Shown piece by piece: positions 17,115-33,360 of a stretch of 64,000 nucleotides of DNA. The stretch is from Oceanispirochaeta sp. (GTDB lineage: Bacteria > Spirochaetota > Spirochaetia > DSM-2461). Numbering within the stretch: the first letter of the stretch is position 1; the number at the start of each line of letters is the position of its first letter. The position numbers and the translations under genes were made by a program. The notes under the pieces were generated by a model. That model worked only from the letters and a program-made list of their open reading frames with translations. It was not told the origin of the DNA and searched no databases. Where the stretch lies: NCBI GenBank assembly GCA_963663385.2, contig CAXXXD010000003.1:416001-480000 (forward strand), written 5' to 3'.

Positions 17115-17159
17115 AATATTACTGTACTTAATGATAGAAAATTCTAAGGAGATTAAGAA

Positions 17160-18236
17160 ATGAGTTTATCAAGCCCACTGAAAAAATCAGTTGATTTATG
17201 CAAAATGGAAGTATGGAACGATTCCTGTTCAGTTGAAGAATTGAACTATGCTATAAGCCACGGCGCTTCCGGTGCGACAACCAACCCCGTAATCGTACTG
17301 AATGTACTAAAACAGGAAATGCACCTCTGGAAAGACAGAATCCTTGAAATCATTAAAGAGATGCCTACCGCATCAGAAGTTGAAATCTCCTGGAAACTTA
17401 TTGAGGAAATGGCAGTTAAAGGCGCTTCCATCCTTAAACCTGTTTTTGATGAAACCAATGGCAAGAAGGGCCGGATCTCCATCCAGACAAATGCTCAGCT
17501 CTACCGCAATGCGGAGGCCATGACAGCTCAGGCTGTAGAATTCAACAAACTGGCCGAGAACATGATGGTTAAGATGCCAACTACCGAAGCGGGTATCAAA
17601 GCTTTCGAAGAAGCAACCTATCATGGCGTTAATATCAATGCTACCGTAAGTTTTACTGTTCCCCAGGCTGTTCAGGTAGCCGAAGCTGTAGAAAGAGGTC
17701 TTAAAAGAAGAGAAGCCGAGGGGAAAGATGTTTCCAATATGACGCCTGTCTGTACAATCATGGTTGGTCGTCTGGATGACTGGCTGAAAGTTGTTGCTGC
17801 CAGGGAAAAAATTGCCGTAACCCCCGGAGTCCTTGACTGGGCCGGTGTGGCAGCTTTCAAGAATGCCTACAGAATTTTCAAAGAGAAAGGCTACAGAACA
17901 AGACTTCTCTCTGCTGCTTACAGAAGTCATCTGCACTGGTCTCAGCTGATTGGTGACGATATTGTTCAGACTATCCCCAGCAAGTGGCAGAAACTGTACA
18001 ACGAAAGTGGTATCGAGCCGGAAGTAACAATTGACAAGCCTGTTGATCCTGCCATTATGGATGAGCTGACAAGACTTTTCCCGGACTTCGTAAGAGCTTA
18101 CGAACCAGATGGTATGACTCCTGCCGAGTTTGATTCCTATGGAGCCACTGCCAGAACCCTCCGTGGATTCCTGGCCGGTTATGCCGAGCTGCTCAGTGTT
18201 GTACGGGATCTGATGGTTCCCAATCCCGACGCATAA
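17160..18236 (+). CDS. Transaldolase-family protein (non-canonical active site)
   Basis: WNDS, GATTNP, GRISIQ, VKMP (Schiff-base Lys), NATVSF, MVGRLDD. Confidence 0.85.
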   Translation: MSLSSPLKKSVDLCKMEVWNDSCSVEELNYAISHGASGATTNPVIVLNVLKQEMHLWKDRILEIIKEMPTASEVEISWKLIEEMAVKGASILKPVFDETNGKKGRISIQTNAQLYRNAEAMTAQAVEFNKLAENMMVKMPTTEAGIKAFEEATYHGVNINATVSFTVPQAVQVAEAVERGLKRREAEGKDVSNMTPVCTIMVGRLDDWLKVVAAREKIAVTPGVLDWAGVAAFKNAYRIFKEKGYRTRLLSAAYRSHLHWSQLIGDDIVQTIPSKWQKLYNESGIEPEVTIDKPVDPAIMDELTRLFPDFVRAYEPDGMTPAEFDSYGATARTLRGFLAGYAELLSVVRDLMVPNPDA

Positions 18237-18257
18237 GCTGAAAGGGTGTATAACCGG

Positions 18258-18289
18258 AAAGGGCGTTTTATGGTAAAGGCGCCCTTTTA
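18258..18289 (+). terminator. Hairpin/terminator between transaldolase and aldehyde dehydrogenase genes
   Basis: AAAGGGCG...CGCCCTTTT. Confidence 0.5.
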
Positions 18290-18349
18290 TCAATCAGGGT
18301 GTAAGTCTACCCTTGAGAAGAGGCTTGAAAAGTAAATTGAGGAGTTAAA

Positions 18350-19729
18350 ATGTCTGACTATATTACCGGATTGATAAGCCGGGCCCGCAAGGCCCAGGCG
18401 GAAATAGAATTCCTGTCCCAGGAAAAAGTGGATGAGATCTGCGAAAGCATCGCCTGGGCTGCCATTCAGGAACCCTTTGTCACAGAACTGTGCAAACTGG
18501 CCGTGGAAGAAACCCGTATGGGCGACTTCCAGAGCAAATACGGAAAAATGATGAACAAGACCCGCGGTGGCTGGTTCGATATGAAAGGCCAGAAGTCCGC
18601 TGGTGTTATCGAAGAAGACGAAGCGCTGGGACTGATCAAAATCGCCAAGCCCGTAGGTGTTATCGGGGCCATGGTTCCGTGTACCAACTGCGAGGCCACT
18701 CAGGTTCTTAAATCCATGAGCGCCATCAAGGGCCGGAATGCCATTATCCTGGCCCCCCATCCCCGTGCCATCAAAACCAATAAAATGGTGATCGATATGA
18801 TGCGCGGCATTCTGAAAGGGCTTGGGTACCCCGAAGACCTGATCATCCATATGGATGAGGTTACCATGGACAACTCACAGGAGCTGATGAAACAGTGCGA
18901 CCTGATCCTGGCAACAGGAGGCGGCGGTCTTGTGAAAGCGGCTTACTCCAGCGGAACCCCCGCCTACGGAGTTGGAGCAGGTAATGCGGTAACTATTGTA
19001 GACGATACGCAGGACCCCAAGGTTGTGGCAGACAAAATCAAACGGTCCAAAACCTTCGATCTGGCCACCAGCTGTTCCGCCGAGAACTCCTGCCTGTTTC
19101 AGAAAGAGATTTATGAAGACATGTGCGCCGCACTGGAAGCCGAAGGGGGTTACAGGGTTAAGGCGGATGAAAAGGATAAACTCCAGAAAGCCATGTGGCC
19201 CGACGGACATACCCTGAACCGGGACATCGTGGCCCAGCCTGCCGAAAAGATTGCCTCCATTGCCGGAATCGATCTGCCCGAAGGAAAGTGTTTTCTCTTT
19301 GTGGAAGAAACGGGAATCGGCGCGGACTATCCTTTCTCGGGAGAGAAACTGTCTGTTGTCACCACCCTGTACAAATGGGACACCTTCGATCAGGCCGTTC
19401 AGATGGTAAATGATATCACCAACTACTCCGGAGCAGGCCACTCCTGCGGTATTCATACAACAAAGAAAGAGAGAATCCTCCAGCTTTCGGAGAGGGTTCA
19501 TGTATCACGGGTTATGGTTAACCAGCCCCAGTGTCTGGCCAACAGCGGTTCCTGGACCAATGCCATGCCCACCACCCTGACTCTGGGATGCGGTTCCTGG
19601 GGAGGAAATATTGCCAGTGAGAACATCACCTGGAAGCATTTGATCAACACAACCTGGGTTTCTTCTCCCATCGCCAACCGACAGCCTTCGGATGAGGAGT
19701 TATTCAGTGAAAGCGTTAGAAAAGGCTAA
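18350..19729 (+). CDS. CoA-acylating aldehyde dehydrogenase (SauS/AdhE-N/EutE-like)
   Basis: KPVGVIGA, ATGGGGLVKAAYSSGTPAYGVGAGN, SKTFDLATSCSAENS, EKLS, GHSCGIH, LTLGCGSWGGN. Confidence 0.85.
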   Translation: MSDYITGLISRARKAQAEIEFLSQEKVDEICESIAWAAIQEPFVTELCKLAVEETRMGDFQSKYGKMMNKTRGGWFDMKGQKSAGVIEEDEALGLIKIAKPVGVIGAMVPCTNCEATQVLKSMSAIKGRNAIILAPHPRAIKTNKMVIDMMRGILKGLGYPEDLIIHMDEVTMDNSQELMKQCDLILATGGGGLVKAAYSSGTPAYGVGAGNAVTIVDDTQDPKVVADKIKRSKTFDLATSCSAENSCLFQKEIYEDMCAALEAEGGYRVKADEKDKLQKAMWPDGHTLNRDIVAQPAEKIASIAGIDLPEGKCFLFVEETGIGADYPFSGEKLSVVTTLYKWDTFDQAVQMVNDITNYSGAGHSCGIHTTKKERILQLSERVHVSRVMVNQPQCLANSGSWTNAMPTTLTLGCGSWGGNIASENITWKHLINTTWVSSPIANRQPSDEELFSESVRKG

Positions 19730-19730
19730 T

Positions 19731-21341
19731 ATGAAAAAACGTTCCAGAGGCGGGGACTCAGTCCCGGAAGAAGAGAAAAGGGAAATCCCCAAAGCTCACA
19801 GGGAAGCGGTCTCCCATCTGGACAGGAGAAAAGCCACCATGCTGGCCGGCGGAGGCGAGTCCCGCCAGGCTCAGCAGAGGGCCAAGGGCAAGAAGACGGC
19901 CCGGGAGAGAATCCATTTTCTTACCGATGAAGGCAGTTTTGTTGAAAACCAGCCCTACATTACCACCCGGAGCGATGACTTCGGCATGGATAAGAAGAAG
20001 TTTGCCGGAGACGGTGTTATTGCCGGAAGCGCTCTTCTGGACGGTCGTCAGATCTGGCTGACCTCCCAGGACTTCACCGTACTGGGCGGGTCACTGGGCG
20101 AGCAGCATGCCGCCAAGATCGCCGGGGCGCAGATGAATGCCCTGAAAACAGGCAAGCCCTTTGTGCAGATCAACGATTCCGGCGGAGCCCGCATTCAGGA
20201 AGGGGTCATGTCCCTTGAAGGGTACGGCAGTATCTTCCGGGCCAACACGCTGGCCTCGGGTGTGATTCCCCAGATCTCCCTGATTATGGGTCCCTGTGCG
20301 GGAGGAGCCGCGTACTCGCCGGCTTTGACTGACTTTGTTTTTATGGTCGACAAGACCAGCCAGATGTATATAACCGGTCCCGACGTGATCAAAGCTGTGA
20401 CCGGAGAGAATGTGACCGGCGAAGGTCTGGGCGGGGCAGTAGCCCATAACAGCAAAAGCGGTAATGCCCATTTCCGCTGCGCCTCCGAAGAAGAGTGCCT
20501 GACCACTCTTAAAAGGCTGCTGTCCTACCTGCCTTCCTCCAACAGGGAAGCGCCTCCGCGGATTGAGTGTACGGACGATCCGAACAGGGATACGGGAGAG
20601 ATCCTCCATATCCTTCCGGATAAGGCGAACAAGCCCTATGATATAAGGGAAGTGATTGATCTGATCTTTGATCAGGAGAGCTTTCTGGAGGTGCATAAAG
20701 AGTTTGCCACCAGCATGGTCGTAGGATTTGCCCGCCTGGCCGGCCGGACGGTCGGTGTATACGGTAATCAGCCCAGGGTGTTTGCGGGATCCCTGGATAA
20801 GGACTCCTCGGACAAGGCGGCCCGGTTTATCCGCTTCTGCGATGCCTTCGGTATCCCCGTGATTTCCCTGGTGGATGTTCCGGGGTATATGCCGGGTACG
20901 GTTCAGGAATTCGGCGGTATTATCCGCCACGGAGCCAAGCTGCTGTACGCGGTCGCCGAGGCTACGGTTCCTAAAATTGCCCTTGTCCTGCGGAAAGCCT
21001 ACGGCGGCGCCTATATCGGTATGGCCTCAAAGGCTCTTGGTTATGACAGGGTGCTGGCCCTTCCCACGGCGGAGATTGCCGTAATGGGAGCTGCCGGTGC
21101 GGCGAATATTATTTTCCGGAACGATATCAACGCCGCCAGGGACCCCGATCTTATCCGTGAGATCAAGATCCACGAGTACCAGGAGAAGTTTATGAACCCC
21201 TTTGCGGCGGCTTCCCAGGGTATTGTGGACGATGTTATCGCACCGGAAGCCATCCGGAAGGAACTGATCCGGTCTGTAGAGATGATGGCGGATAAGATGG
21301 AAGATCTGCCTAGAAAGAAACACGGGAATATTCCCCTTTAG
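19731..21341 (+). CDS. Acyl-CoA carboxylase/decarboxylase carboxyltransferase subunit (PccB/MmdA-like)
   Basis: GDGVIAG, DFTVLGGSLGE, DSGGARIQEG, GPCAGGAAYSPA, DVPGY, RKAYGGAY, KKHGNIPL. Confidence 0.9.
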   Translation: MKKRSRGGDSVPEEEKREIPKAHREAVSHLDRRKATMLAGGGESRQAQQRAKGKKTARERIHFLTDEGSFVENQPYITTRSDDFGMDKKKFAGDGVIAGSALLDGRQIWLTSQDFTVLGGSLGEQHAAKIAGAQMNALKTGKPFVQINDSGGARIQEGVMSLEGYGSIFRANTLASGVIPQISLIMGPCAGGAAYSPALTDFVFMVDKTSQMYITGPDVIKAVTGENVTGEGLGGAVAHNSKSGNAHFRCASEEECLTTLKRLLSYLPSSNREAPPRIECTDDPNRDTGEILHILPDKANKPYDIREVIDLIFDQESFLEVHKEFATSMVVGFARLAGRTVGVYGNQPRVFAGSLDKDSSDKAARFIRFCDAFGIPVISLVDVPGYMPGTVQEFGGIIRHGAKLLYAVAEATVPKIALVLRKAYGGAYIGMASKALGYDRVLALPTAEIAVMGAAGAANIIFRNDINAARDPDLIREIKIHEYQEKFMNPFAAASQGIVDDVIAPEAIRKELIRSVEMMADKMEDLPRKKHGNIPL

Positions 21342-21370
21342 TGTTTGACTTATGATAAGGAAGAGGTCGC

Positions 21371-21529
21371 ATGATGAAAAGATTATTTGGTAGAAAAAAA
21401 CAGGAAGCCTTAAAGGCTCGGGAGGTTAAAGCTCCTGTAGATTATACTCCCGGTGTGTACAGCGATGCCATGATCTGGGCTGCGAGCAAGCTGAATCAGT
21501 TGCAGCTGCAGTCGAATCCCGGCTTCTGA
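21371..21529 (+). CDS. 52-aa small protein absent from the ORF track; possible carboxylase accessory subunit
   Basis: GAGGT RBS; MMKRLFGRKKQEALKAREVKAPVDYTPGVYSDAMIWAASKLNQLQLQSNPGF; lies before the operon terminator. Confidence 0.6.
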   Translation: MMKRLFGRKKQEALKAREVKAPVDYTPGVYSDAMIWAASKLNQLQLQSNPGF

Positions 21530-21563
21530 CTCATAAATACTATTTAAAAAATGTTCGGTTTTC

Positions 21564-21617
21564 ACCGGTATCAGCCCCAACTGCAGAGAGATCCTTCCGG
21601 GCTGGTACCGGTTTTTT
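21564..21617 (+). terminator. Intrinsic terminator of the ALDH-carboxyltransferase operon
   Basis: ACCGGTATCAGCCC...GGGCTGGTACCGGT followed by a T-run. Confidence 0.7.
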
Positions 21618-21714
21618 ATGTGTTTTACCAGTATACGCCGGATCAGAAGTTAAAACAGGGTCTGAATGAAGAAGCTCAGGGTTCATCATTCAGACTCAGT
21701 TTTTGATGGCCGTG

Positions 21715-22425
21715 TCACTTGTTGATCTGCAGTCTGTTCTTGATATTTTCAATATGGGAACTGAAGGTATCCACCGAGTTGGATACTTCGCCTGTTCCGA
21801 TAGTATCGATTATCTGTTGATGCTCGCTGACAATCAGGGCCGGGTCGTTGTAATCGCTCTGGGACTGGTCAATCTCTTCGAACATAAAAGACTTAAGGGT
21901 TTTATAGATAGAGTAGAAGAGGGTATTCCCTGTGCTTTTCACAATGATATTGTGAAAATTATAATCCGCCTCAATCATGTTTTCCCGCTGCCCCGCGTCC
22001 AGGCTCATCTTCATATGGTCCACCTGTTTCTGCAGTTCTTTTATTATACCGGCTACTTTATCAGGATCTTCGTTCTGCAGATGGGTGAGGGTGATAATAC
22101 TCCAAAGCTCAATGGCCCCTCTTGTTTCGATCAGTTCCTGCTGTTCCTCTTTACCCAGAAGGATGGACCAGGAAAGGGCTTCCGCGGAGATATTGGCTCT
22201 GTCCGAGAGAAATGTACCCTTGGCCGCCTTGGATTCCAGCACGCCAAGGTAGTTAAAAATTTTAATGGCCTCCCGAATGGAGGAACGGCCGATACCGAAC
22301 CGCTCTGCCAGCTCATTTTCTGTCGGGATTTTATCTCCCGGTTTATATTTTCCGGAGGCTATCAGATCTTTGATATGCTCCATTACCTGTTCCACTACCG
22401 TTTTCTGTTTTATCTTCTGAACCAT
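21715..22425 (-). CDS. GntR-family regulator, FadR subfamily (FCD domain)
   Basis: PGDKIPTENELAERFGIGRSSIREA...GTF; ADYNFH, EHQQI. Confidence 0.92.
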   Translation of the reverse strand: MVQKIKQKTVVEQVMEHIKDLIASGKYKPGDKIPTENELAERFGIGRSSIREAIKIFNYLGVLESKAAKGTFLSDRANISAEALSWSILLGKEEQQELIETRGAIELWSIITLTHLQNEDPDKVAGIIKELQKQVDHMKMSLDAGQRENMIEADYNFHNIIVKSTGNTLFYSIYKTLKSFMFEEIDQSQSDYNDPALIVSEHQQIIDTIGTGEVSNSVDTFSSHIENIKNRLQINK

Positions 22426-22437
22426 TTTTTATGCTCC

Positions 22438-22472
22438 TATTGTATGATAATATAACATTAATACAAATTCAA
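22438..22472 (-). promoter_or_regulatory. gntR promoter with putative autoregulatory operator
   Basis: TTGAAT-17-TATCAT on the minus strand; 22438-22452 reads TATTATCATACAATA, identical to the tal-upstream site. Confidence 0.65.
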
Positions 22473-22560
22473 CAACAGAATTATTCTGTTTATCTGTTTT
22501 ATATTTATTTATAAATAAAACAGTGTTTTTTGTATAGAATACTGTTGAAAAAGATTACTG

Positions 22561-22640: not shown

Positions 22641-22655
22641 TAATGTCTGATAATA
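22641..22655 (-). promoter_or_regulatory. Additional GntR-type operator copy
   Basis: Reverse complement TATTATCAGACATTA, 13/15 match to the tal site. Confidence 0.5.
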
Positions 22656-22777: not shown

Positions 22778-22853
22778 AAATGTAATGTATTCCGTAAAAA
22801 AAAAGAACCGGCAGGGGAATGCCGGTATATGCCGAGAGGCAGGAGGAGAATTT

Positions 22854-23792
22854 ATGAGAAAGCTTTTAGTAGCGCTGATGATGATGGCTCTGTTGACAGG
22901 GGCTGTATTCGCAAATGGACAGCAGGAAGATGAGGGTTATAAAGTAGGTTATGTATGTAACAACTTTAATGATACCTTTCAGACTTATGTAATGGATGCG
23001 GCAGAAGCCTACTTCAATAATGTAGCTGATGTGGAAATCGTTCTTCAGGACTCCGTTGAGGATGTTATTCGTCAGCAGGACCTTGTTAATACACTGATTG
23101 CACAGAAAGTTGATGCACTGATTGTTGTGCCTGTTGATACAAGCGCTATGGAACCCATTGTAAAAGCAGCTGACGAAGCAGGAATTCCCCTTTGCTTCGT
23201 AAACAGAAACCCCTATGCAGGAAAATCCCTTCCTGAAAATGTTTTCTACGTAGGTTCTCAGGAAATCATCGCCGGACAGCAGCAGATGGAATACATGGGA
23301 GAACTCATGGGCGGAAAAGGCGGTGTCGGTATCCTGATGGGTAAACTGGACAACGAAGGCGCTCTGAAAAGAACAGAAGGAAACGAAGCTGTTATTGCAG
23401 ATAAGTTTCCCGGCATTAAGATTCTTGCAAAAGAGACCGGTAACTGGCAGAGAGACCAGGGCATGACTCTGACAGAAAACTGGCTGACCGCTTACGGTTC
23501 CGATCTGAATGGAATCCTGGCTAACAACGATGAAATGGCACTTGGTGCTGTAGAAGCTCTGAAAGCTGCCGGAAGAGAAGATATCTTCGTAATGGGTGTT
23601 GATGCCATTCCCGATGCAAAAGAAGCTGTCGGAAACGGATCTCTGGCTGCTACTGTACTTCAGGATGCTGTTGGACAGGGAGAAGGCGGAGCAAAAGTTA
23701 TCCACAGTGTGCTTCAGGGAAAAACTCCCGAGCCGATTACCTGGGTACCCTTTGTACTTATTACACCGGAAAACCTGGCTGATTTTCAGTAA
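22854..23792 (+). CDS. Sugar (probably inositol) ABC transporter substrate-binding protein, RbsB/IbpA-like
   Basis: VDALIVVPVD, FVNR, YVGSQE, GNWQRD, ANNDEMALGA; start MRKLL after AGGAGG; iol context. Confidence 0.85.
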   Translation: MRKLLVALMMMALLTGAVFANGQQEDEGYKVGYVCNNFNDTFQTYVMDAAEAYFNNVADVEIVLQDSVEDVIRQQDLVNTLIAQKVDALIVVPVDTSAMEPIVKAADEAGIPLCFVNRNPYAGKSLPENVFYVGSQEIIAGQQQMEYMGELMGGKGGVGILMGKLDNEGALKRTEGNEAVIADKFPGIKILAKETGNWQRDQGMTLTENWLTAYGSDLNGILANNDEMALGAVEALKAAGREDIFVMGVDAIPDAKEAVGNGSLAATVLQDAVGQGEGGAKVIHSVLQGKTPEPITWVPFVLITPENLADFQ

Positions 23793-23803
23793 TTGAATAG
23801 CCG

Positions 23804-23835
23804 AGGGGAAAAGCCGGAGGTTTTTCCCCTTTTTT
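23804..23835 (+). terminator. Hairpin after the substrate-binding protein gene
   Basis: AGGGGAAAAGCC-GGA-GGTTTTTCCCCT followed by a T-run. Confidence 0.55.
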
Positions 23836-23847
23836 ATGGAGGGATTT

Positions 23848-25365
23848 ATGGCAGAGGAAAAATATATCCTGGAAATGACGGATATTGTAAAGACCTTTCC
23901 CGGCGTACAGGCACTCAAGGGTGTTCAGCTGAAGGTCAAACCGGGTGAGATCCATGCTCTGATGGGGGAGAATGGCGCCGGTAAATCTACACTTATGAAC
24001 TGTCTGGCAGGAGTTCATGGACAAACTTCAGGAACCATTTTATATGATGGTAAAGTAAGAGAAAATTATAATACAATTCAGGCTCTTGAAATGGGTATCT
24101 CTATGATACACCAGGAATTGAGTCCTGTTCTTCACAGACCGATCATGGAAAACATCTGGTTAGGCAGAGAACCTTTAAACAAATTCGGTCTTGTTGATCA
24201 CCAGAAAATGTATGAGATGAGCGTGGAAGTTCTGAAAGAGATCGATCTTGATGTCGATCCCAGAACAGAGATGGTAAATCTGACTGTAGCAAAAATGCAG
24301 ATGATAGAAATAGCCAAAGCTGTTTCTTTTGATTCCAAACTGATTATTATGGATGAACCCACATCTGCCCTGGCTGACAAAGAGATAAATCAGCTTTTTA
24401 CCATTATGCGGAAGCTGAAAGAAAGCGGTAAAAGCATTATATATATCTCTCATAAACTGGATGAGGTTTATGAGATTACTGATCGTATTTCCGTTTTTCG
24501 GGACGGTATTTATATCGGAACGGAGGATACTGACAAGCTGTCAGAGGATCAGCTCATTAAGATGATGGTAGGACGGGAAGTCAATGAACTCTTTCCCAAG
24601 GAACCCTGTCCTATCGGCGATGTAAAGATGGAAGTAAGGGGTCTGACCCACAGCAGGCATTTCAGGGATGTGTCCTTTACAGTCAGGAAAGGCGAGATCC
24701 TGGGGGTCGCCGGTTTGATTGGAGCGGGCCGAACGGAAGTTATTGAAACAATTTTCGGAATTCGGGAAAAAGTCAGCGGTGAAGTATTGATCGACGGGAA
24801 ACCCGTTGAAATCAACTCTCCCAGGGATGCTATTGCCAATCATATGGCTCTATTGACAGAAGACCGCCGTCATTCGGGGATCTTCCCCATGCTGTCGGTC
24901 CGCTTGAATATGGCCATTACCAACTTTCCGAAATTCCTGAATAAATTCGGACTGATCCGGGACAGGGATGTAAAGAAAGAGTGTGATGAATATGTTAAAA
25001 AAATCCAGGTGAAAACACCCAGTCTGCAGCAGCGGGTAGAGAATCTATCCGGTGGAAATCAGCAGAAAGTACTGGTTTCCCGCTGGTTGATGACCAATCC
25101 GGATATCCTTTTTCTGGATGAACCGACACGTGGTATCGATGTAGGAGCAAAATCAGAGATCCATCGTCTGATAACCAGGTTGGCCGGAGAGGGAAAATCT
25201 ATTGTCATGGTTTCTTCCGAACTACCGGAAGTAATGGGGATGAGTGACCGCATTATGATAATGCATGAAGGGAAAGTAACCGGTATCGTTGATAACCGGG
25301 ACGACCTCACTCAAGAGGAATTAATGACCTATGCTACTGGAAAAGCTGGGAAGAAGGGGGCGTAA
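23848..25365 (+). CDS. Sugar ABC transporter ATP-binding protein (tandem NBD, RbsA/MglA-like)
   Basis: GENGAGKST, MDEPT, LSGGNQQK, LDEPTRGIDVGAK. Confidence 0.92.
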   Translation: MAEEKYILEMTDIVKTFPGVQALKGVQLKVKPGEIHALMGENGAGKSTLMNCLAGVHGQTSGTILYDGKVRENYNTIQALEMGISMIHQELSPVLHRPIMENIWLGREPLNKFGLVDHQKMYEMSVEVLKEIDLDVDPRTEMVNLTVAKMQMIEIAKAVSFDSKLIIMDEPTSALADKEINQLFTIMRKLKESGKSIIYISHKLDEVYEITDRISVFRDGIYIGTEDTDKLSEDQLIKMMVGREVNELFPKEPCPIGDVKMEVRGLTHSRHFRDVSFTVRKGEILGVAGLIGAGRTEVIETIFGIREKVSGEVLIDGKPVEINSPRDAIANHMALLTEDRRHSGIFPMLSVRLNMAITNFPKFLNKFGLIRDRDVKKECDEYVKKIQVKTPSLQQRVENLSGGNQQKVLVSRWLMTNPDILFLDEPTRGIDVGAKSEIHRLITRLAGEGKSIVMVSSELPEVMGMSDRIMIMHEGKVTGIVDNRDDLTQEELMTYATGKAGKKGA

Positions 25366-25368
25366 ATT

Positions 25369-26376
25369 ATGTCTGCAGCAGAAAATATTTTAAAATTAAA
25401 GAAAACAGGGTCCAAAGAGATCCTGCAGAAATACGGTATTGTATTTGTTCTTATTCTGATGGTAATCGGAATAAGTGTCCTGGAACCGGCCTTCCTGAGC
25501 AGTTCCAATATCTTTAATGTTCTGACACAGTCCGCCATATTCGGGATTATGGCATTGGGACTGACATTTGTTATTATCTCCAAGGGAATTGACCTGTCTG
25601 TCGGTTCTATTCTGGCTTTTGCCGGTGTTGTCGCAGCCAGTCTGGCTCAGACGGCTGAAGCTACCGGAAAATACTATCCCAACCTGGCTGAAATGCCTGT
25701 TCTGGTTCCCATTCTGGCAGCTCTGGGTGTAGGTGCGGCCTGTGGTGCGGTTACGGGTATCCTTATCGCTAAAACCAATATCCCCGCTTTTATCTCTTCT
25801 TTAGGTATGATGACTGTGGCGAGAGGTTTTGCCCTGATTTACTCGGATGGTAAACCTGTCAGTACCCTGATTCCATCCATGACACGTCTCGGCGGCAAAC
25901 TGTGGGGCTTCCTTCCTATTCCCGTACTGATCTATTTTGTCATGATTATTATCAGTTCCGTCCTGCTGAATAAAACAAGATTCGGTAAGAGCGTTTATGC
26001 GGTCGGCGGTAATATCAAGGCTGCCGAGGTATCCGGTGTTAATGTAAGCAAAACCCTGATTGCCATCTATTCATTCTGTGGATTGCTGGCCGGTCTGGCA
26101 GCAATCGTATTTGCCGGCCGTGTCGGTTCTGTTCATCCCGGTGCTGCCTTCGGATATGAATTGACTGCCATTGCAGCAACCACAATCGGTGGAACAAGCC
26201 ATTCAGGCGGTATCGGAACAATCTGGGGCGCTTTTGTAGGTGCCATGGTACTGGCTGTACTCAGAAACGGACTGACTCTTCTTGGTGTTGATGCCTACTG
26301 GCAGCAGGTAACCGAAGGTGTCATCATCGTTGTTGCTGTTATCATCGATATGCGTAAAAACGCTAAAAAAGACTGA
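25369..26376 (+). CDS. Sugar ABC transporter permease (RbsC-like)
   Basis: GIDLSVGS, IPAFI, TRFGKSVYAVGGN, GYELTAIAA. Confidence 0.92.
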   Translation: MSAAENILKLKKTGSKEILQKYGIVFVLILMVIGISVLEPAFLSSSNIFNVLTQSAIFGIMALGLTFVIISKGIDLSVGSILAFAGVVAASLAQTAEATGKYYPNLAEMPVLVPILAALGVGAACGAVTGILIAKTNIPAFISSLGMMTVARGFALIYSDGKPVSTLIPSMTRLGGKLWGFLPIPVLIYFVMIIISSVLLNKTRFGKSVYAVGGNIKAAEVSGVNVSKTLIAIYSFCGLLAGLAAIVFAGRVGSVHPGAAFGYELTAIAATTIGGTSHSGGIGTIWGAFVGAMVLAVLRNGLTLLGVDAYWQQVTEGVIIVVAVIIDMRKNAKKD

Positions 26377-26397
26377 TAAGAGGAAAGAACAGAAGCT

Positions 26398-27411
26398 ATG
26401 AAAAAAATTAAAATCGGTTCAGTCGGTCTGGGACGTCTGGGCCTGCAGCATGCGGAAAATATAGCCACAAGGGTCATGAATGCCGAACTGACGGCCCTGT
26501 GTGATTTGAATGAATCCCTTTTAAATGAAACCGCGGACAGACTGGGAGTAACCCACCGCTGTAAAAGTTTTGAGGAATTGATTGCTATTGAAGAGCTGGA
26601 TGCCATATCCATTGTCTCTCCTTCGCATCTTCATACAGGTCAGATTTCAGCTGCCCTGGCAGCAGGGAAGCATGTGTTTTCGGAAAAACCTCTTGGTGTA
26701 ACTGTAGAGGAGTGCAAAGAAGCGGAAAAGGCTGTGGAAAAGTACTCCGATAAGGTTTTTATGCTGGGCTTTATGCGCCGCTTTGATCCTTCCTATGTGT
26801 ACGCTCATGAAAAAGTGATGGCCGGAGAGATCGGTAAGCCGGTTCTTTTCCGCTCCTACAGTCAGGACCCCGAAAAATTTATTGACGGAGCTATTGCTTT
26901 TGCCGGTCATAGCGGCGGGCAGTTTCTGGATATGGCTGTGCATGATATTGATTTGGCTCGCTGGTTTCTCCAGTCAGAGCCGGAAAGCGTTACAGCCATG
27001 GGAGGCTGCTATGCGCATCCTGAATTCGCTGAATATAAGGACGGGGATAATGTTTCCTGTTTGATGAAGTTCAGGAATGATGCTATGGTTTTTCTGTTTG
27101 CAGGCCGGACGGCTCCCCATGGTTACAATGTGGAGACTGAAATCATTGGAACAAAAGGAATCCTGAGAATCGCTTCTGTTCCGCAGAAAAATCTGGTGGA
27201 AGTCCTTGATAACAGTGGTGTGCGCCGGGAATGCAGCGAAAACTTTCTGGAACGATTTGAAAGTTCCTATGTAAATGAAATGCAGGAATTCGTGGACTGT
27301 ATCCTGGAAGGCCGGAAACCGAAAGTAACCGTATATGACGGGACCAAAGTATCCGAAATCGCCTACAGGTGCAAAGAGTCTTTCGAGACCGGCAATCAAT
27401 TGAGGTTTTAA
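26398..27411 (+). CDS. Gfo/Idh/MocA oxidoreductase, inositol dehydrogenase-like
   Basis: GLGRLG, SEKP, GFMRRFD, SGGQFLDMAVHDID. Confidence 0.85.
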   Translation: MKKIKIGSVGLGRLGLQHAENIATRVMNAELTALCDLNESLLNETADRLGVTHRCKSFEELIAIEELDAISIVSPSHLHTGQISAALAAGKHVFSEKPLGVTVEECKEAEKAVEKYSDKVFMLGFMRRFDPSYVYAHEKVMAGEIGKPVLFRSYSQDPEKFIDGAIAFAGHSGGQFLDMAVHDIDLARWFLQSEPESVTAMGGCYAHPEFAEYKDGDNVSCLMKFRNDAMVFLFAGRTAPHGYNVETEIIGTKGILRIASVPQKNLVEVLDNSGVRRECSENFLERFESSYVNEMQEFVDCILEGRKPKVTVYDGTKVSEIAYRCKESFETGNQLRF

Positions 27412-28436
27412 TGAAAAATACCCAGGTTACCATAAAGGATATTGCGGAAATCGCCGGAGTCAGCTTTTCGACGGTTTCCCGTTCCCTGAACGACAGTTCC
27501 GGAGTTTCGGAAAAAACAAAAAAGAGGATTTGTCAGATTGCGGAAGACCTGGGTTTTGAATTTAATGCCGGCGCGAGGAGTATGATTACGAGCCGTGCCG
27601 GAACCGTGGGGATTGTTCTGCCCGAACAATATACCCTTGTAAATGTTAATGTGTACCACGGGATGCTGATGAACAGCCTCCGAACCTACCTGGAAAAAGC
27701 GGATGTGGATCTGATTGTCACCTATCAGAATAACCATTTCAGCAAGCAGAATAATATAAAACGGCTTATAACACGGAAAAAGGTCGATGGTCTGATTCTT
27801 CTGGATGAGTACATCTCCCCGGAATCTCTGGACTTCATGAAAAACCGGGATTTTCCTTTTGTCTGTACCCATTACCCGCCCGGACCTGCAATCAAAGATC
27901 AGGATGTGATTTTTACGGATCATTATATCGGCGGTCAGCTTGTGGCAGAACATCTGCTTGAAAGGGGACGTACATCATTCCTTCTGCTGGCAATGGCAGT
28001 GGAGCATGACGAGTTTCTCTTGAGAGAGCGGGGATTTATAGAAACCGTTGAGAGGGCCGGTCACAAGGTAAAACGGATTACCAGTGATTCAACATTTGAT
28101 TCGGCCAAAGAGGTAATGAAAGAGCATCTGGCTGCTGCCAGATCCAGTGATGCCCTTTTCGCCATTAATGACCTGATGGCGCTGGGCGCTATGCGGACTT
28201 TGAAGGATAAGGGATTTGACATACCCGACGATATCGCTATCGTCGGGTATGATGACAGTGAATTCGCCCGTTACAGTAACCCCTCCCTTACCTCTATTCA
28301 TCAGCCTCGAGAAGAGCTGGCGCATATTTCCTGCGACCGTCTATTTCTTCAGATGGAAAAGAAGAGGCAGGACGAGGAGTTTATTAAAAAGAGAATCAGC
28401 ATACAGCCGGTTCTTCTGGAGCGGGAGTCGACATAA
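27411..28436 (+). CDS. LacI-family transcriptional regulator
   Basis: VTIKDIAEIAGVSFSTVSRSLN; IPDDIAIVGYDD, PSLTSIHQP. Confidence 0.92.
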   Translation: MKNTQVTIKDIAEIAGVSFSTVSRSLNDSSGVSEKTKKRICQIAEDLGFEFNAGARSMITSRAGTVGIVLPEQYTLVNVNVYHGMLMNSLRTYLEKADVDLIVTYQNNHFSKQNNIKRLITRKKVDGLILLDEYISPESLDFMKNRDFPFVCTHYPPGPAIKDQDVIFTDHYIGGQLVAEHLLERGRTSFLLLAMAVEHDEFLLRERGFIETVERAGHKVKRITSDSTFDSAKEVMKEHLAAARSSDALFAINDLMALGAMRTLKDKGFDIPDDIAIVGYDDSEFARYSNPSLTSIHQPREELAHISCDRLFLQMEKKRQDEEFIKKRISIQPVLLEREST

Positions 28437-28451
28437 ATATGAAAATAAAGC

Positions 28452-28503
28452 TTCACAATATTTAATACTGCTGATACTATATCAGACAATAATACAATAA
28501 GAA
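28452..28503 (+). promoter_or_regulatory. iolB promoter with GntR-type operator
   Basis: TTCACA-17-TACTAT; 28480-28503 TATCAGACAATAATACAATAAGAA matches 17091-17114 at 21/24. Confidence 0.6.
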
Positions 28504-28523
28504 GATACGACAAGGAGGTTGAG

Positions 28524-29339
28524 TTGGTAGTTCGAAATGAAAAAAACATGAAATCCGGGTACACGGCTATAACCGAAGAGAACGGGAAACATTCCGAAAT
28601 GCTTCTGGATTTTGGACTTCTCAATCTGAAAGCTGGTGAGGAATGGACCTGTGAAGAACAAAAAGAACGAGCCTGGCTGCTGATCAGGGGCAACGCCGTA
28701 TTTGAATGGGAAGGAAAATCCGAAGAAGTGACAAGAAGATCCTGCTTTGATGAAAATCCTTCTGTATTACATGTACCCCAGGGTGTCAAAGTGAAAATCA
28801 GAGCGGTTGAGGACACTGAATTCGGAGTTGAAAAGAAGTTAAACGACAAGGATTTTGATTGTAAGCTCTATAAACCGGAGGATGTCCGCTGCGACATATT
28901 CGGCGGAGGGATTATGCATGATGCCGCCAAGAGGACCGTTCGTACCGTATTTGACGGAGAGATAGCTCCCTATTCCAATATGGTAATGGGAGAAGTGATC
29001 AATCACCCCGGGCGCTGGTCCAGCTACCCTCCACACGATCATCCCCAGCCGGAAATCTATCACTACAGACATTTTCCCGAGCAGGGATTTGGTGTCTCCC
29101 TTATAGATGAAGAACCTTACTATGTGAAAAACGGGGATACAACACTGATTTTACCCGATAGAACACACTCTCAGGTGGCTGGTGCCGGATATGCCATGTA
29201 TTACATCTGGATGATTCCTCATCTGGAAAACGACCGTTGGCTGCCTACCACACGGTACTTTCGGAAGGAGCATGAATGGCTCAAGGAACCGGATGTCAAA
29301 ATCTGGCCAGAATTAAAATACGGGGAGGAACAGAAATAA
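28524..29339 (+). CDS. iolB: 5-deoxy-glucuronate isomerase
   Basis: [42 protein letters not shown] start after AAGGAGG. Confidence 0.85.
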
Positions 29340-31273
29340 TGGGAACAATCAGAATGACAGTCGCTCAGGCGCTGGTAAAATTCCTGAATCAGCAGTATCT
29401 GGAATTTGACGGGAAGGAACATAAATTTGTAGAAGGTATTTTTACCATATTCGGACATGGAAATGTAGTTGGTCTGGGACAGGCTCTGGAAGAAGACCCC
29501 GGGACACTCAAAGTCCATCAGGGAAGAAACGAACAGGGAATGGCTGCGGCTGCCATGGGTTTTGCCAAACAGAATCACAGGCGTAAAATTTATGCGGCTA
29601 CTTCTTCTGTCGGACCCGGCGCTGCCAATATGGTGACTGCGGCCGCAACCGCTACCGCCAACAGGATCCCTGTGCTTCTGCTGCCCGGAGATACCTATGC
29701 TACAAGACAGCCGGACCCGGTTCTCCAGCAGATGGAGCAGTTTCATGATCTGACTCTGACTACGAACGATGCTTTCCGTCCGGTCAGTAAATTCTGGGAC
29801 AGGGTAAACCGTCCCGAACAGCTCATGTCTGCCATGATCAATGCCATGCGGACCCTTACCGATCCGGCCAATACCGGTGCTGTAACGGTTTGTCTTCCCC
29901 AGGATGTTCAGGGGGAAGCCTATGACTACCCCGAATATTTCTTTCAGAAACGGGTTCACCGACTGGAAAGAACAGCGCCGACGGATGCGATGGTGGCAGA
30001 AGCGGCAGCCATGATTAAATCAAAGAAAAAGCCCATGCTGATCTGCGGCGGTGGGGTTCGTTATTCCGAAGCAGGACAGGAACTGATAAAATTCGCCGAG
30101 GAGTTCAATATCCCCTATGCGGAAACCCAGGCCGGTAAGAGTGCTACCCTGCATTCCCATCCCCTGAATATCGGCGGTGTCGGTACAACAGGTTGTCTGG
30201 CAGCCAATACACTGGGACAGGAGACAGATCTTGTAATAGGTGTAGGAACCAGGTATACCGATTTTACCACAGCGTCAAAATGGCTGTATCAGAATCCCGA
30301 TGTGGATTTTATCAATATAAATGTTGCCGGTTTCGACTCCTATAAACTGGATGCCGTGCGCGTCACATCGGATGCAAAAATGGCCCTTGCCGCTCTAAGG
30401 GAAGCTCTTGTGAAAGAGGGATATAAATCTGCCTATACCACTGAGATCAAGGCCGCCAAGGATGAATGGGACAGGGAACTGAACCGGCTTTTCAATCTGA
30501 AATATACTGGATCCGGATTTCAGCCGGAAATCAGGGACGGTCTGAAAGAAAAACTGGAAGAGTACAGCAAATTTCTGGGATCTGAACTGACCCAGACCAG
30601 GGTACTGGGAATCCTTGACGAAGTTCTGGGTGAAAACTCTATCTGTGTTGGAGCCGCCGGTTCTCTTCCGGGAGACCTGCAGAGGGTTTACCGGGCAAAA
30701 AGCGAACGGTCCTATCATATGGAATACGGTTACTCCTGTATGGGGTATGAAATCGCCGCGGCTCTGGGGGCCAAGCTGGCGGAGCCGGAACGTGAAGTCT
30801 ATGCCCATCTGGGTGACGGTTCCTTTATGATGCTCCACTCCGAACTGGCGACATCTATACAGGAGGGAATGAAGATCAACTGTCTGGTATTTGACAATGT
30901 TGAATTCGGCTGTATCAACAACCTGCAGATGGAAAGGGGACAGGGCAGCTTCGGTACTGAATTCCGTCACAGGGATCCCGCATCCGGTAAACTGGCAGGT
31001 CCTCTGGTTTCTGTGGATTTTGCCAAAATCGGTGAAGGATACGGCTGTAAAACCTATACGGTCAAGAACGAAGAAGAGCTTAAAGCTGCCATTGAGGATG
31101 CAAAAAAACAGACTGTATCCACAGTGATTGATATAAAGGTTCTACCTAAAACAATGACCGGCGGATACAAGGGATTCTGGCGCTGCGGGCAGGCGGAAGT
31201 TGCTGAAAGCAAATCCGTTGTTGAAAAGACGGAAGAGATGAAAAACGAGCTGAAAAGAGCCCGACAGTACTGA
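29339..31273 (+). CDS. iolD: 3D-(3,5/4)-trihydroxycyclohexane-1,2-dione acylhydrolase (ThDP-dependent)
   Basis: [59 protein letters not shown]. Confidence 0.95.
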
Positions 31274-31344
31274 TTCCGGTAAGGTTCAATTTTATTTCCC
31301 GGAGGGATACTTACTCCGGGAAACTGAATATATAAGGGAAAATT

Positions 31345-32238
31345 ATGAACAAAGAGAATGTTAAATTGGCCATGGCTCCCATTGGTTGGACCAATGATGA
31401 TATGCCTGATCTGGGGGCTGAAAACACTTTTGAACAGTGTGTGAGCGAGATGGCTCTGGCGGGGTATACCGGTTCGGAAGTAGGGAACAAGTATCCGAAA
31501 GATCCGGCGGTTCTGAAAGAGTATCTGGATATCCGCGGGATCCAGATCTGTAACCAGTGGTTTAGTTCCTTTCTGGCTTCCCAGCCTTTTGAACAGGTCG
31601 AAAAGGATTTCAGAAATCAGTTGATGTTCCTGAAAGCCATGGGGGCGGACGTTATCGGTCCTTCCGAGCAGACCCGGTCCTGCCAGGGGCAGCTGGATGT
31701 TCCCATTTTTTCTGGAAAGGCGGAATTCAATACGGAAGAATTCAAAAGATTGACAGACGGCATGAACAAGCTGGGGCATATTGCCAGAGAAGAAGGTCTG
31801 ACCCTGGCTTATCATCACCACATGGGTACTGCCGTACAGACCATGGAAGAAACGGAACGTTTCCTCAATGATACGGATCCGGATAAGGTTACCCTTCTGT
31901 ATGACTGCGGTCACTTCTCTTTTGCCGGAGAGGATCCTGTTAAAGCCCTTGAAAAATTCATCAGCCGGGTTGGTCATGTACACCTTAAGGATATGCGTAA
32001 AAGTGTATACTCAGAAGTCCAGAGGAAAAACTCATCCTTCCTGGATGCGGTAAGAGACGGAGTTTTCACTGTTCCCGGCGACGGGGATGTGGATTTCCCT
32101 TCCATCTTTAAAATCCTAGAAGAAAATAACTACAAGGGATGGATGGTTGTAGAAGCGGAACAGGATCCGGCCAAGGCCAATCCTTTTGCCTATGCCAAGA
32201 TGGCACGCGAGTATATCCGGAAACATACGGATATTTAA
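31345..32238 (+). CDS. iolE: Myo-inosose-2 dehydratase
   Basis: APIGWTNDDMPDLG, YHHHMGT, HVHLKD, FTVPGDG, VVEAEQDP. Confidence 0.95.
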   Translation: MNKENVKLAMAPIGWTNDDMPDLGAENTFEQCVSEMALAGYTGSEVGNKYPKDPAVLKEYLDIRGIQICNQWFSSFLASQPFEQVEKDFRNQLMFLKAMGADVIGPSEQTRSCQGQLDVPIFSGKAEFNTEEFKRLTDGMNKLGHIAREEGLTLAYHHHMGTAVQTMEETERFLNDTDPDKVTLLYDCGHFSFAGEDPVKALEKFISRVGHVHLKDMRKSVYSEVQRKNSSFLDAVRDGVFTVPGDGDVDFPSIFKILEENNYKGWMVVEAEQDPAKANPFAYAKMAREYIRKHTDI

Positions 32239-32244
32239 TATAAG

Positions 32245-32312
32245 TATCCCTCTCCTTTATACTTTTCCATCGATCCCCGAGCGGAGTCGAGGGGGTTAAG
32301 GGGGGAGGGATA
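32245..32312. repeat. Nested hairpin / REP-like element between iolE and iolG
   Basis: Outer arms TATCCCTCTCCTTTA / TAAGGGGGGAGGGATA enclosing CCCCGAGCGGAGTCGAGGGG. Confidence 0.5.
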
Positions 32313-32346
32313 GAATAAAATGAATAGAATCCTGGAGAATAATGAT

Positions 32347-33360
32347 ATGAAAAAACAGTTAGTTATGGGAATTATCGGAGCCGGCCGGATTGGCAAGGTT
32401 CATGTAGAGAGTATCTGTACAAAGATTCCGGGAGCCCGGGTAAAGACTCTGGCTGATCCTTTTATGAATGCAGAGACCGAAGAGTGGGCTTCCGGCATGG
32501 GTGTGGAAAGAACAACAAAGGATTACAAAGAGATCCTGAATGACAGTGAAATAGAAGCGGTTCTGATTTGTACTCCCACCGATACCCATGCTCATATTAC
32601 ACAGGAAGCGGCCAAAGCGGGCAAGCATATTTTCTGTGAAAAACCCATCGACCTGGATGTGGAACGAATCAGGGAAACCCTTAAAATTGTTGAAGAGTCC
32701 GGTGTAAAGTTCCAGATCGGTTTCAACAGACGTTTTGATCATAACTTCAGAGCAATCAGAAATGCAGTGGATGCCGGTAAAGTAGGTGATCCTCAGATTA
32801 TTAAAGTTGTTTCCAGAGATCCCGGTCCTCCCCCCATTGAATATGTCAAAGTTTCAGGTGGAATCTTTGTGGATATGACCATTCATGACTTCGATATGGT
32901 TCGTTACCTCAGCGGCAGCGAAGTGGAAGAAGTATATGTACAGGGAGCCGTTCTGGTTGATCCCGCCATTGGTGAAGCCGGAGATATCGATACTGCCCTG
33001 ATCAGCTTGAAATTTGCCAACGGTGCAATCGGTATGATTGATAACTCCAGAAAAGCTGCTTACGGATATGACCAGAGAGCTGAAGTTTTTGGAAGTAAAG
33101 GGTCCGTGGCGACAGCTAATGATAATCCGTCCACAGCTATTATCAGCACCGAAGACGGTATAACCACAGAGAAACCTTTCCATTTCTTCCTGGAACGCTA
33201 TATGGATTCCTTTGTACAGGAAATGAGAGAGTTTATTGATGCCATTCAGAATGATGCGAAAACTCCCCTTGGCGGAATTGATGCCATAAGGCCAGTGCAG
33301 ATTGCCATGGCTGCAGGAGAATCTCTGAAAACCGGTAAACCTGTGAAAGTTGAATATTAA
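32347..33360 (+). CDS. iolG: Inositol 2-dehydrogenase
   Basis: GAGRIGKVH, CEKPI, GFNRRFDHNF, SRDP, SGGIFVDMTIHDFD, YGYDQRAEVFG. Confidence 0.92.
   Translation: MKKQLVMGIIGAGRIGKVHVESICTKIPGARVKTLADPFMNAETEEWASGMGVERTTKDYKEILNDSEIEAVLICTPTDTHAHITQEAAKAGKHIFCEKPIDLDVERIRETLKIVEESGVKFQIGFNRRFDHNFRAIRNAVDAGKVGDPQIIKVVSRDPGPPPIEYVKVSGGIFVDMTIHDFDMVRYLSGSEVEEVYVQGAVLVDPAIGEAGDIDTALISLKFANGAIGMIDNSRKAAYGYDQRAEVFGSKGSVATANDNPSTAIISTEDGITTEKPFHFFLERYMDSFVQEMREFIDAIQNDAKTPLGGIDAIRPVQIAMAAGESLKTGKPVKVEY

Follow-up and report, generated by a model that had tools for sequence, protein, structure and literature searches.

Phytate and lipids release inositol, which serves as a major carbon source in soils, sediments, and guts; the way bacteria break it down is held to be settled textbook biochemistry. 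In the canonical iol pathway of Bacillus subtilis and Salmonella, IolG, IolE, IolD, and the isomerase IolB lead to 5-dehydro-2-deoxy-D-gluconate (DKG), which is phosphorylated by IolC and cleaved by the aldolase IolJ, yielding malonate semialdehyde (MSA) for IolA. The locus described here, from the spirochaete Oceanispirochaeta sp., encodes the same upper pathway, with two copies of IolG, IolE, IolD, and an IolB-family isomerase, and the same intermediates DKG and MSA are expected. In place of IolC, IolJ, and IolA, however, it carries a member of the transaldolase/fructose-6-phosphate aldolase family (TAL_FSA; the gene is called TAL below), a coenzyme A (CoA)-acylating aldehyde dehydrogenase (ALDH), and a carboxyltransferase (CT). 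The window, that is, the whole stretch of DNA analyzed, comprises 64,000 nt (GCA_963663385.2, contig CAXXXD010000003.1, 416,001-480,000; positions below are relative to the window). It belongs to a genome assembly of 5.3 Mb in 4 contigs that is 98.1% complete.

Several departures from the canonical scheme have been described. The inositol variant of Thermotoga proceeds without IolD. A fusion of IolC with DUF2090 has been proposed as an alternative DKG-6-phosphate aldolase (PMC9007349). Like the present case, it is a non-orthologous replacement of IolJ within inositol clusters, but DKG is still phosphorylated in that system, and DUF2090 was not found in the Oceanispirochaeta genome. In Dysosmobacter, a housekeeping-type aldolase and an oxoacid dehydrogenase were proposed as the pathway ending (PMC13311982), and in Anaerostipes a CoA-transferase route leads to propionate (PMC8355322). 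A large survey treats clusters lacking one of four core genes, iolC included, as possible incomplete genomes, assembly errors, or frameshifts (PMC9430895). None of the known endings listed here uses a TAL-family enzyme, and what appears to be new is an inositol pathway with the logic of the sulfo-TAL type. Open-access papers and bioRxiv yielded no report of a TAL-family enzyme in inositol catabolism, although subscription journals could hold one, and no report there of a step from MSA to malonyl-CoA.

The sulfo-TAL route of sulfoquinovose breakdown offers the analogy: as described in PMC7491151, a TAL-family enzyme takes a C3 ketol unit off a ketose with a non-phosphate anionic far end, leaving an anionic aldehyde and feeding fructose 6-phosphate (F6P). 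The solved sulfofructose transaldolase is nevertheless of a 226-residue type, belonging to another subfamily and acting on another substrate, whereas the enzyme considered here has Gln in place of the catalytic Glu.

The locus and its neighbourhood across phyla

Genes were called from Pfam and NCBIfam profile scans together with the open reading frame (ORF) lists of the window. They form three operons: the first contains TAL, the ALDH, the CT, and a 52-codon ORF (17160-21529), the second a binding protein, ATPase, permease, IolG, and a LacI regulator (22785-28436), and the third the IolB-like gene, IolD, IolE, and IolG (28524-33360). The genes named by the first-pass annotation (TAL, ALDH, CT, importer, two IolG, IolE, IolD, and IolB-like) were all recovered where it had placed them, and profile scans of the window agreed with it that IolC, IolJ, and IolA are missing there. 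Extending the search to the whole genome gave neither IolC nor IolA above cut-off. The IolC model hit 12 genes of the PfkB type with a top score of 117.8 bits (cut-off 300), and the MMSDH/IolA model reached at most 82.2 bits against 448.5. A second class II aldolase of the IolJ type was not found in the genome, where a single class II fructose-bisphosphate aldolase is encoded. The best explanation of the locus would be an inositol regulon made up of three operons, in which the pathway ends with none of IolC, IolJ, and IolA. Its features are as follows:

17068-17118, + strand: promoter-like site TTTACA-17-TATCAT overlapping the motif TATCATACAATA (17091-17102), 5' of the TAL operon
17160-18236, + strand: TAL, TAL/FSA-family gene of the Gln type (PF00923, 147.6 bits, cut-off 27)
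18350-19729, + strand: CoA-acylating ALDH of the SauS/SucD/EutE type (NF047625 SauS, 520.9 bits, cut-off 600)
19692-21341, + strand: ORF of the CT, MmdA/PccB/12S type, likely start 19731 (PF01039, 607.7 bits; TIGR01117, mmdA, 746.2 against 998.8)
21371-21529, + strand: small ORF of 52 aa, 3' of the CT (homologues in relatives; no Pfam match)
21715-22425, - strand: GntR/FCD regulator, divergent from the importer operon (PF00392, 64 bits; PF07729, 52.8 bits)
22438-22449 (exact) and 22641-22652 (one mismatch), - strand: two motif copies in the GntR/importer intergenic region
22785-23792, 23836-25365, and 25369-26376, + strand: sugar-type ABC importer, namely binding protein, ATPase, and permease (Pfam/NCBIfam)
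26398-27411, + strand: IolG copy 1, inositol 2-dehydrogenase (TIGR04380, 374.4 bits, cut-off 355)
27369-28436, + strand: LacI-family regulator between IolG and the IolB-like gene (PF00356, PF13377)
28480-28491, + strand: motif TATCAGACAATA, 5' of the IolB operon
28524-29339, + strand: divergent IolB-like 5-deoxyglucuronate isomerase (PF04962, 177.5 bits; TIGR04378, 92.4 against a cut-off of 205)
29276-31273, + strand: IolD, trihydroxycyclohexanedione acylhydrolase (TIGR04377, 941.7 bits, cut-off 715)
31345-32238, + strand: IolE, inosose dehydratase (TIGR04379, 416.1 bits, cut-off 290)
32320-33360, + strand: IolG copy 2 (TIGR04380, 487.7 bits, cut-off 355)
33400-33427, + strand: terminator-like hairpin closing the iol operon (12-pair stem with 8 G-C pairs, T tail)

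IolD, IolE, and both IolG copies exceed their curated cut-offs, and the IolB-like protein passes the Pfam family only; the IolB of TAL loci in other phyla scores 313-343 bits with TIGR04378, against 92.4 here. A terminator scan found no + strand terminator between TAL, the ALDH, and the CT, and the candidate ATG of the CT lies 2 nt past the ALDH stop codon. The remaining part of the window is unrelated to inositol genes in the profile scans.

The neighbourhood of TAL recurs far beyond this genome. One scan of species genomes found 411 relatives in at least eight phyla, the best 80 of which belong to Spirochaetota, Chloroflexota, Clostridia, Acidobacteriota, Verrucomicrobiota, Planctomycetota, Calditrichales, and Polyangia. 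Context was counted in 62 of these 80 loci, namely those flanked by 8 kb or more, by local tblastn (E at most 1e-15, query cover of 60% or higher, and an identity floor set between 35 and 55% depending on the gene). TAL has one or more iol genes beside it in 53 of the 62 loci: IolB in 46, IolD in 42, IolG in 35, and IolE in 33. Other neighbours are IolA (25 loci), an acylating ALDH (8), and a CT (4). Neither IolC nor IolJ was seen beside TAL in any of the 62, with queries from a spirochaete cluster that could miss very distant forms. The predicted co-occurrence of the TAL clade with iolB, iolD, and iolE is thus seen in eight or more phyla, and the loci concerned lack IolC and IolJ.

At least six distinct gene orders keep TAL inside iol clusters, in Spirochaetota, Anaerolineae, Caldilineae, Terriglobia, Clostridia, and Verrucomicrobiota. 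Four representative loci were confirmed with NCBIfam:

Anaerolinea: LacI-IolB-TAL-IolD-IolG-IolE-IolG-ALDH (SauS-like, 569 bits)
Clostridiales: IolG-isomerase-IolD-IolE-TAL-IolB-like-IolA
Terriglobia: LacI-IolB-TAL-IolD-IolA-IolE
Caldilineaceae: LacI-TAL-IolB-IolD-IolA

IolB, which acts before the gap in the pathway, and IolA, which acts after it, are kept around TAL in independent orders, and in this way the loci bracket the missing steps.

The three operons of the window also share a regulatory signature. The 12-nt motif TATCAKACAATA occurs exactly at 17091(+), 22438(-), and 28480(+) and with one mismatch at 22641(-), which amounts to 4 matches against 0.44 expected, a number reached in none of 100 shuffles. 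The shared promoter motif reported earlier is accordingly real; it precedes the importer as well as the operons of TAL and IolB. A longer similarity of 28-34 nt surrounds its core (families D15 and I1); in D15, the site of the IolB operon is 86% identical to the TAL promoter over 28 nt. Genome-wide, 6 exact copies were counted against 1.85 expected, and three of the six belong to this locus. In seven related spirochaete loci, the motif (at most one mismatch) lies 60-80 nt before the TAL gene, and it also precedes the importer and IolB where those genes lie within the fetched stretch. It persists in loci without a GntR gene (L024, L028) and in loci without ALDH and CT (L016, L017, L026). The copy at 22438-22449 sits just upstream of the GntR/FCD start, and this regulator, which has homologues of 84-85% identity in L015 and L031 and none in L024 or L028, is a candidate binder of the shared motif. 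The LacI regulator is kept in related loci, and the ABC importer stands beside the TAL-ALDH-CT trio in L015, L024, L028, and L031 at 77-92% identity.

The three exact motif copies outside the locus add nothing to the pathway. One (C2:1837501) is upstream of a second GntR/FCD regulator accompanied by LarA-like, altronate-dehydratase-like, and GntP genes, another (C4:250712) is upstream of an SNF-family sodium symporter, and the sixth copy of the genome is inside coding DNA. Two candidates from the window were discarded. The plus-strand ORF 21703-22455 has no family match and lies opposite the GntR/FCD gene, and the AraC gene (16167-17042, +), considered as regulator of the trio, is paired divergently with lacZ and lacks conservation among the related loci. 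The iol terminator is immediately followed by a 3' fragment of gdhA (33507-33857), which encodes about 70 residues that align with positions 376-444 of E. coli GdhA (51% identity). Elsewhere the genome has a gdhA of full length (C3:792995-794311), and the fragment looks like a relic at the locus edge.

The transaldolase-family enzyme

The TAL protein was aligned with TalB and FsaA of E. coli and, in a comparison of 87 clade sequences, with the 86 other members of its clade. Identity is 28% to TalB and 24% to FsaA. The closest solved structures are ordinary transaldolases of low similarity (3r5e, 69 bits; 3clm, 65 bits). All NCBIfam transaldolase models stay far below cut-off, the best being PRK03343 (123 bits against 367) with five others likewise, and the FSA equivalog TIGR00875 reaches 49.2 bits against 245.95. 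The protein is best filed in the TAL/FSA family, neither as a transaldolase nor as an FSA.

In the alignment with TalB and FsaA, which belong to the same Pfam family, the Schiff-base Lys and the Asp, Asn, Thr, and two Arg residues line up. Lys138 occupies the position of the Schiff-base lysine (TalB Lys132, FsaA Lys85) and is invariant in 87 of 87 sequences. Asp21, Thr40, Asn42, Lys138, Asn160, Arg204, and Arg255 align with TalB Asp17, Thr33, Asn35, Lys132, Asn154, Arg181, and Arg228, all of them invariant, and Thr162, which aligns with TalB Thr156, is kept in 86 of 87. Arg204 and Arg255 are the counterparts of the anion (phosphate)-binding Arg181 and Arg228. The Schiff-base lysine agrees with the TAL/FSA family and the arginines with a true transaldolase; the catalytic residue does not. 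The Glu of transaldolases (TalB Glu96) is Gln109 in all 87 sequences, as in FsaA (Gln59), and all 87 carry Met201 at the position of TalB Phe178 and FsaA Tyr131, an equivalence with FsaA drawn by motif only (TIMVGR vs APYVNR) because MAFFT left that FsaA block unaligned. The acid-base catalyst is reportedly Glu in transaldolases and Tyr in FSA. The clade appears to have neither, which would make its acid-base chemistry one without precedent and leaves the transfer reaction not assured.

DKG is a plausible substrate on structural grounds. Read from C6, it is a ketose with a free CH2OH-CO end, and its next two hydroxyls are D-threo (3S,4R), as in fructose. This fructose-like arrangement is why IolJ, a homologue of fructose-bisphosphate aldolase, cleaves DKG 6-phosphate to dihydroxyacetone phosphate and MSA. 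By their family models, the ABC importer brings in the substrate, and IolG, IolE, IolD, and the IolB-like isomerase convert myo-inositol to DKG. In the proposed pathway, the TAL enzyme would then form a Schiff base through Lys138 on the CH2OH-CO end of unphosphorylated DKG, cut the C3-C4 bond, and release MSA while holding the C3 unit as an enamine. Transfer of this unit to glyceraldehyde 3-phosphate (GAP) would give F6P, which a pyrophosphate-dependent phosphofructokinase (PPi-PFK) could return to glycolysis without ATP. The ATP-saving argument needs such a PPi-PFK, and the genome does encode one (851.7 bits against a cut-off of 587.95), so that the ATP of the IolC step could be saved. That DKG is the substrate of the TAL enzyme, which would thereby replace IolC and IolJ, is assigned a probability of about 0.75.

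The C3 unit might instead be protonated and hydrolyzed to free dihydroxyacetone, as in a lyase of the FSA type, with the dihydroxyacetone phosphorylated by DhaK/DhaL or by glycerol kinase. Since Gln109 replaces the catalytic Glu exactly like Gln59 of E. coli FSA, the enzyme may either transfer the unit to GAP or release dihydroxyacetone. DhaK and DhaL are encoded in the genome, and a glycerol kinase gene lies near TAL in three related spirochaete loci. The catalytic Tyr131 of FSA, however, corresponds to Met201 in all members, the FSA model gives the low score mentioned above, and a dihydroxyacetone kinase is not conserved in the 62 TAL loci. Moreover, DhaK/DhaL lie 53 kb off in a separate polyol operon, where the motif has no exact match. 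Release of dihydroxyacetone is considered rather unlikely, though it is the best placed of the rival explanations.

Cys23, Asn111, and Tyr254 are invariant in 85 of the 87 sequences. The exceptions are the members from genomes G080 and G120, the two non-iol-linked spirochaete members examined, and because only these deviate, the three residues are suggested to go with the inositol-linked substrate. Both deviating members (L106 in G080; L107 in G120:C109) have 61-64% identity, reside in genomes without IolD, and carry Ala, Asp, and Met/Phe at the three positions. In G120, the TAL gene is divergent from a 59%-identical acylating ALDH. These observations suggest a sister module for another keto-sugar acid. 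The Oceanispirochaeta genome itself contains two TAL_FSA members, the gene of the locus and a paralogue 160 kb away, outside the window (C3:270480-271520; L014:1450-2490). The paralogue is likewise of the Gln type (25% identity; PF00923, 89 bits), lacks equivalents of Asp21 and Arg204, and has a LacI regulator on one side and an SMP-30/gluconolactonase-like gene on the other. It may be a marker of another sugar-acid route using a Gln-type enzyme.

The proposed malonate semialdehyde branch

The ALDH aligns over its full length to the SauS model NF047625, yet its score (520.9 vs 600) is below the equivalog cut-off. Its closest solved chain is 8cei, an acylating succinate-semialdehyde dehydrogenase (312.8 bits). 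SauS interconverts sulfoacetaldehyde and sulfoacetyl-CoA, and the ligase SauCD also takes malonate (PMC10413351). The protein of the locus belongs to the ALDH subfamily of SauS and SucD, which catalyze the reversible CoA-acylating oxidation of a short aldehyde with an anionic tail; it differs in its inositol context, as against sulfonate or succinate. These characterized relatives act on omega-anionic aldehydes and do not decarboxylate them. MSA corresponds to sulfoacetaldehyde with a carboxylate in place of the sulfonate, so that the ALDH would be expected to convert MSA, CoA, and NAD(P)+ to malonyl-CoA.

The link between ALDH and TAL is not restricted to the present lineage. Homologues stand next to TAL in G120, in divergent orientation, and in four Anaerolineae loci (about 50% identity), where the ALDH directly follows the last IolG. 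In four sister Anaerolineaceae loci (L025:15821-17821, L032, L038, and L084), the gene immediately after the TAL-iol genes encodes a tungsten-type aldehyde:ferredoxin oxidoreductase instead. Three non-homologous aldehyde oxidizers (IolA, the SauS-like ALDH, and the aldehyde:ferredoxin oxidoreductase) hence accompany TAL according to lineage, which argues for an aldehyde as the product of the TAL enzyme.

The CT matches solved carboxyltransferases (1vrg, 625.9 bits; 1x0u, 612.7; 1on3, 559.4) and is the sole MmdA-type CT in the genome. In the proposed scheme, it would convert malonyl-CoA to acetyl-CoA, passing the carboxyl group to biotin, probably through a carrier. Sodium-pumping biotin decarboxylases are known from methylmalonyl-CoA decarboxylase (MmdABCDE), oxaloacetate decarboxylase (OadGAB), and the malonate decarboxylase of Malonomonas. 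The CT is of the MmdA type found in such systems, and the genome has OadA and OadB; here, unlike in those systems, the CT is detached from carrier and pump genes and placed in the TAL-ALDH operon, and its partner and any sodium coupling are putative. One OadB gene adjoins a gene for OadA, which includes a biotin domain, with what looks like a short OadG-like frame upstream. This OadA/OadB sodium pump, encoded elsewhere, would be the most likely partner of the CT. In all five other genomes with TAL and this ALDH type, a single CT homologue (51-55% identity) belongs to a CT-(OadG)-biotin carboxyl carrier protein (BCCP)-OadB operon, and OadB was found in two of five TAL genomes of the IolA type; these comparisons cover few and related genomes, and such pumps are common in anaerobes. 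The genome also contains an open frame of 1837 codons with a CT domain and a biotinyl domain (C2:553872-559037), probably a fused acyl-CoA carboxylase.

Several observations count against this part of the scheme. Profile scans found no biotin carrier or OadB gene at the locus, and a search near oadGAB, allowing up to 2 mismatches, found no motif copy upstream of oadA. The full TAL-ALDH-CT trio occurs in four loci only, all close relatives, and therefore reflects one evolutionary event. The first-pass annotation had linked both genes to TAL: for the ALDH the link recurs in three lineages, and for the CT it is confined to this spirochaete lineage.

These points also bear on another explanation, in which the ALDH decarboxylates on the enzyme and forms acetyl-CoA directly, as an analogue of IolA, while the CT serves another CoA ester, e.g., methylmalonyl-CoA or propionyl-CoA in succinate/propionate fermentation. 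The four Anaerolineae loci in which the ALDH follows the iol genes have no CT nearby, the CT is most like the propionyl-CoA carboxylase beta, MmdA, and 12S subunits, and its linkage is limited to one lineage. On the other hand, the CT is translationally coupled to the ALDH under an inositol-type operator, neither SauS nor SucD decarboxylates its substrate, and a CT-BCCP-OadB decarboxylase is present in all five other genomes with this ALDH type. Direct decarboxylation by the ALDH is thus rated somewhat lower still than dihydroxyacetone release.

The complete scheme, including malonyl-CoA and its decarboxylation by the CT, would hold with roughly even odds. Sodium coupling through OadAB is attractive but rather doubtful. 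The most far-reaching version would be an inositol fermentation of anaerobic spirochaetes that uses no ATP for activation, in which the C3 unit is transferred to GAP, PPi-PFK recycles F6P, malonyl-CoA arises through the SauS-like ALDH, and the detached CT loads the biotin of OadA so that OadB pumps sodium, thereby capturing the energy in the carboxyl group of MSA with a hybrid decarboxylase built from the parts of two systems; taken in full, it is improbable to the same degree.

The small ORF downstream of the CT encodes a basic protein of 52 aa with a motif, PGVYSDAxxW, that is conserved in its homologues. These overlap the CT stop codon in three related loci (L015:14189-14371, L024:4167-4313, and L028:14047-14193), and none was found in the closest relative, L031. 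No Pfam family matched even at E up to 10, and the predicted complex of the CT with the 52-aa protein scored 0.01, which speaks neither for nor against binding.

Distribution, further alternatives, and meaning

The relation between TAL and IolC was followed in 301 Spirochaetota and 251 Chloroflexota genomes. Among the Spirochaetota, IolD was above cut-off in 13, to which G239 can be added (IolD cut by a contig end), IolC was above cut-off in 10, and the TAL clade was present in 8 at 49-100% identity. The 13 IolD-positive spirochaetes comprise seven with IolC only, one with TAL only (this genome), two with both, and three with neither; one of the three (G068) has an IolC match of 276.6 bits, just under the cut-off. 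G239 carries TAL, and nothing in it matches IolC at an E of 1e-50 or below. IolD was found in 43 Chloroflexota (42 without G536, which is flagged unpublished), of which 12 have IolC and 8 TAL (E 1e-80 or better), with no genome having both; the other 23, among them G467 (IolC, 294.7 bits) and G536, have neither.

A number of these findings tell against a simple replacement. Genome G285 carries IolJ-IolC-IolB-TAL-IolA-ABC-IolD-IolE-IolG-IolG in one cluster (L102, G285:C368:4621-17297), and G293, of the same genus, holds one TAL-type and one IolC-type cluster. Four of the eight TAL-positive spirochaetes (G080, G120, and G127, which belong to one family, and G231) are without IolD above cut-off, and among the 17 Chloroflexota with TAL, 9 have no IolD match that reaches E 1e-150, some of the TAL-positive genomes without IolD being incomplete metagenome-assembled genomes. 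No iol gene lies nearby in 9 of the 62 TAL loci. The exclusion of IolC by the TAL clade, as originally proposed, holds in the 62 loci and in the 43 IolD-positive Chloroflexota and fails in the two spirochaetes of one genus that have both. IolC and TAL are largely, not strictly, alternative, and the clade is not confined to inositol clusters. Since 23 of the 43 IolD-positive Chloroflexota have neither IolC above cut-off nor TAL at E 1e-80, other endings must exist as well.

Six IolD-positive Chloroflexota loci without IolC and TAL had no TAL-like gene within 10 kb, with TalB, FsaA, and the paralogue of the present genome also used as queries. A complete spirochaete genome of the same class (G250, without IolC above cut-off or a TAL-clade match) has an arrangement of its own (L110, G250:C1:2512000-2531999): IolB-like-IolD-IolG, a HAD hydrolase, two unassigned proteins, and an ABC importer, without IolE at the locus.

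The 12 PfkB kinases of the Oceanispirochaeta genome are a further point of doubt, as one of them could in principle phosphorylate DKG. Together with the one class II aldolase, they would permit a hidden canonical chemistry, in which a generic PfkB kinase and the housekeeping aldolase replace IolC and IolJ, and TAL encodes a pentose-phosphate transaldolase or serves another sugar acid. A housekeeping aldolase has been proposed for the role of IolJ in Dysosmobacter (PMC13311982), the genome has no Glu-type transaldolase, and the clade members of spirochaete family f16 are not iol-linked. The clade occurs, however, in just 8 of the 301 sampled spirochaete genomes and is therefore not housekeeping. 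TAL is iol-linked in 53 of 62 loci and has an operator common to the iol operons, the two non-iol members examined deviate at C23, N111, and Y254, invariant in the other 85, and MSA would be left without IolA. Hidden canonical chemistry is hence quite improbable. Least credible of all is a role of the trio in sulfonate metabolism, where it would form a route of the sulfo-TAL kind with SauS and be a mere neighbour of the iol genes: SauS is the best NCBIfam model for the ALDH and the transaldolase logic is known from sulfoquinovose breakdown (PMC7491151), but the SauS score is below cut-off, sulfofructose transaldolase 8bc3 matches at just 36.3 bits over about 70 residues (105-175), profile scans of the window found no sulfoquinovosidase, sulfoquinovose isomerase, or sulfonate exporter, the CT has no role in that route, and TAL is iol-linked across phyla.

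If the TAL enzyme does act on DKG, pathway predictions would be corrected for hundreds of species, given 411 TAL relatives in at least eight phyla, and the transaldolase family would gain a new substrate class with an unusual Gln/Met active site of interest for biocatalysis. The cluster of G285 with both endings offers a natural case for distinguishing redundancy from the use of different inositol isomers. In the present lineage, the proposed oxidative branch from MSA through malonyl-CoA to acetyl-CoA could couple inositol fermentation to a sodium gradient, and the textbook pathway would possibly have acquired a more energy-efficient ending.

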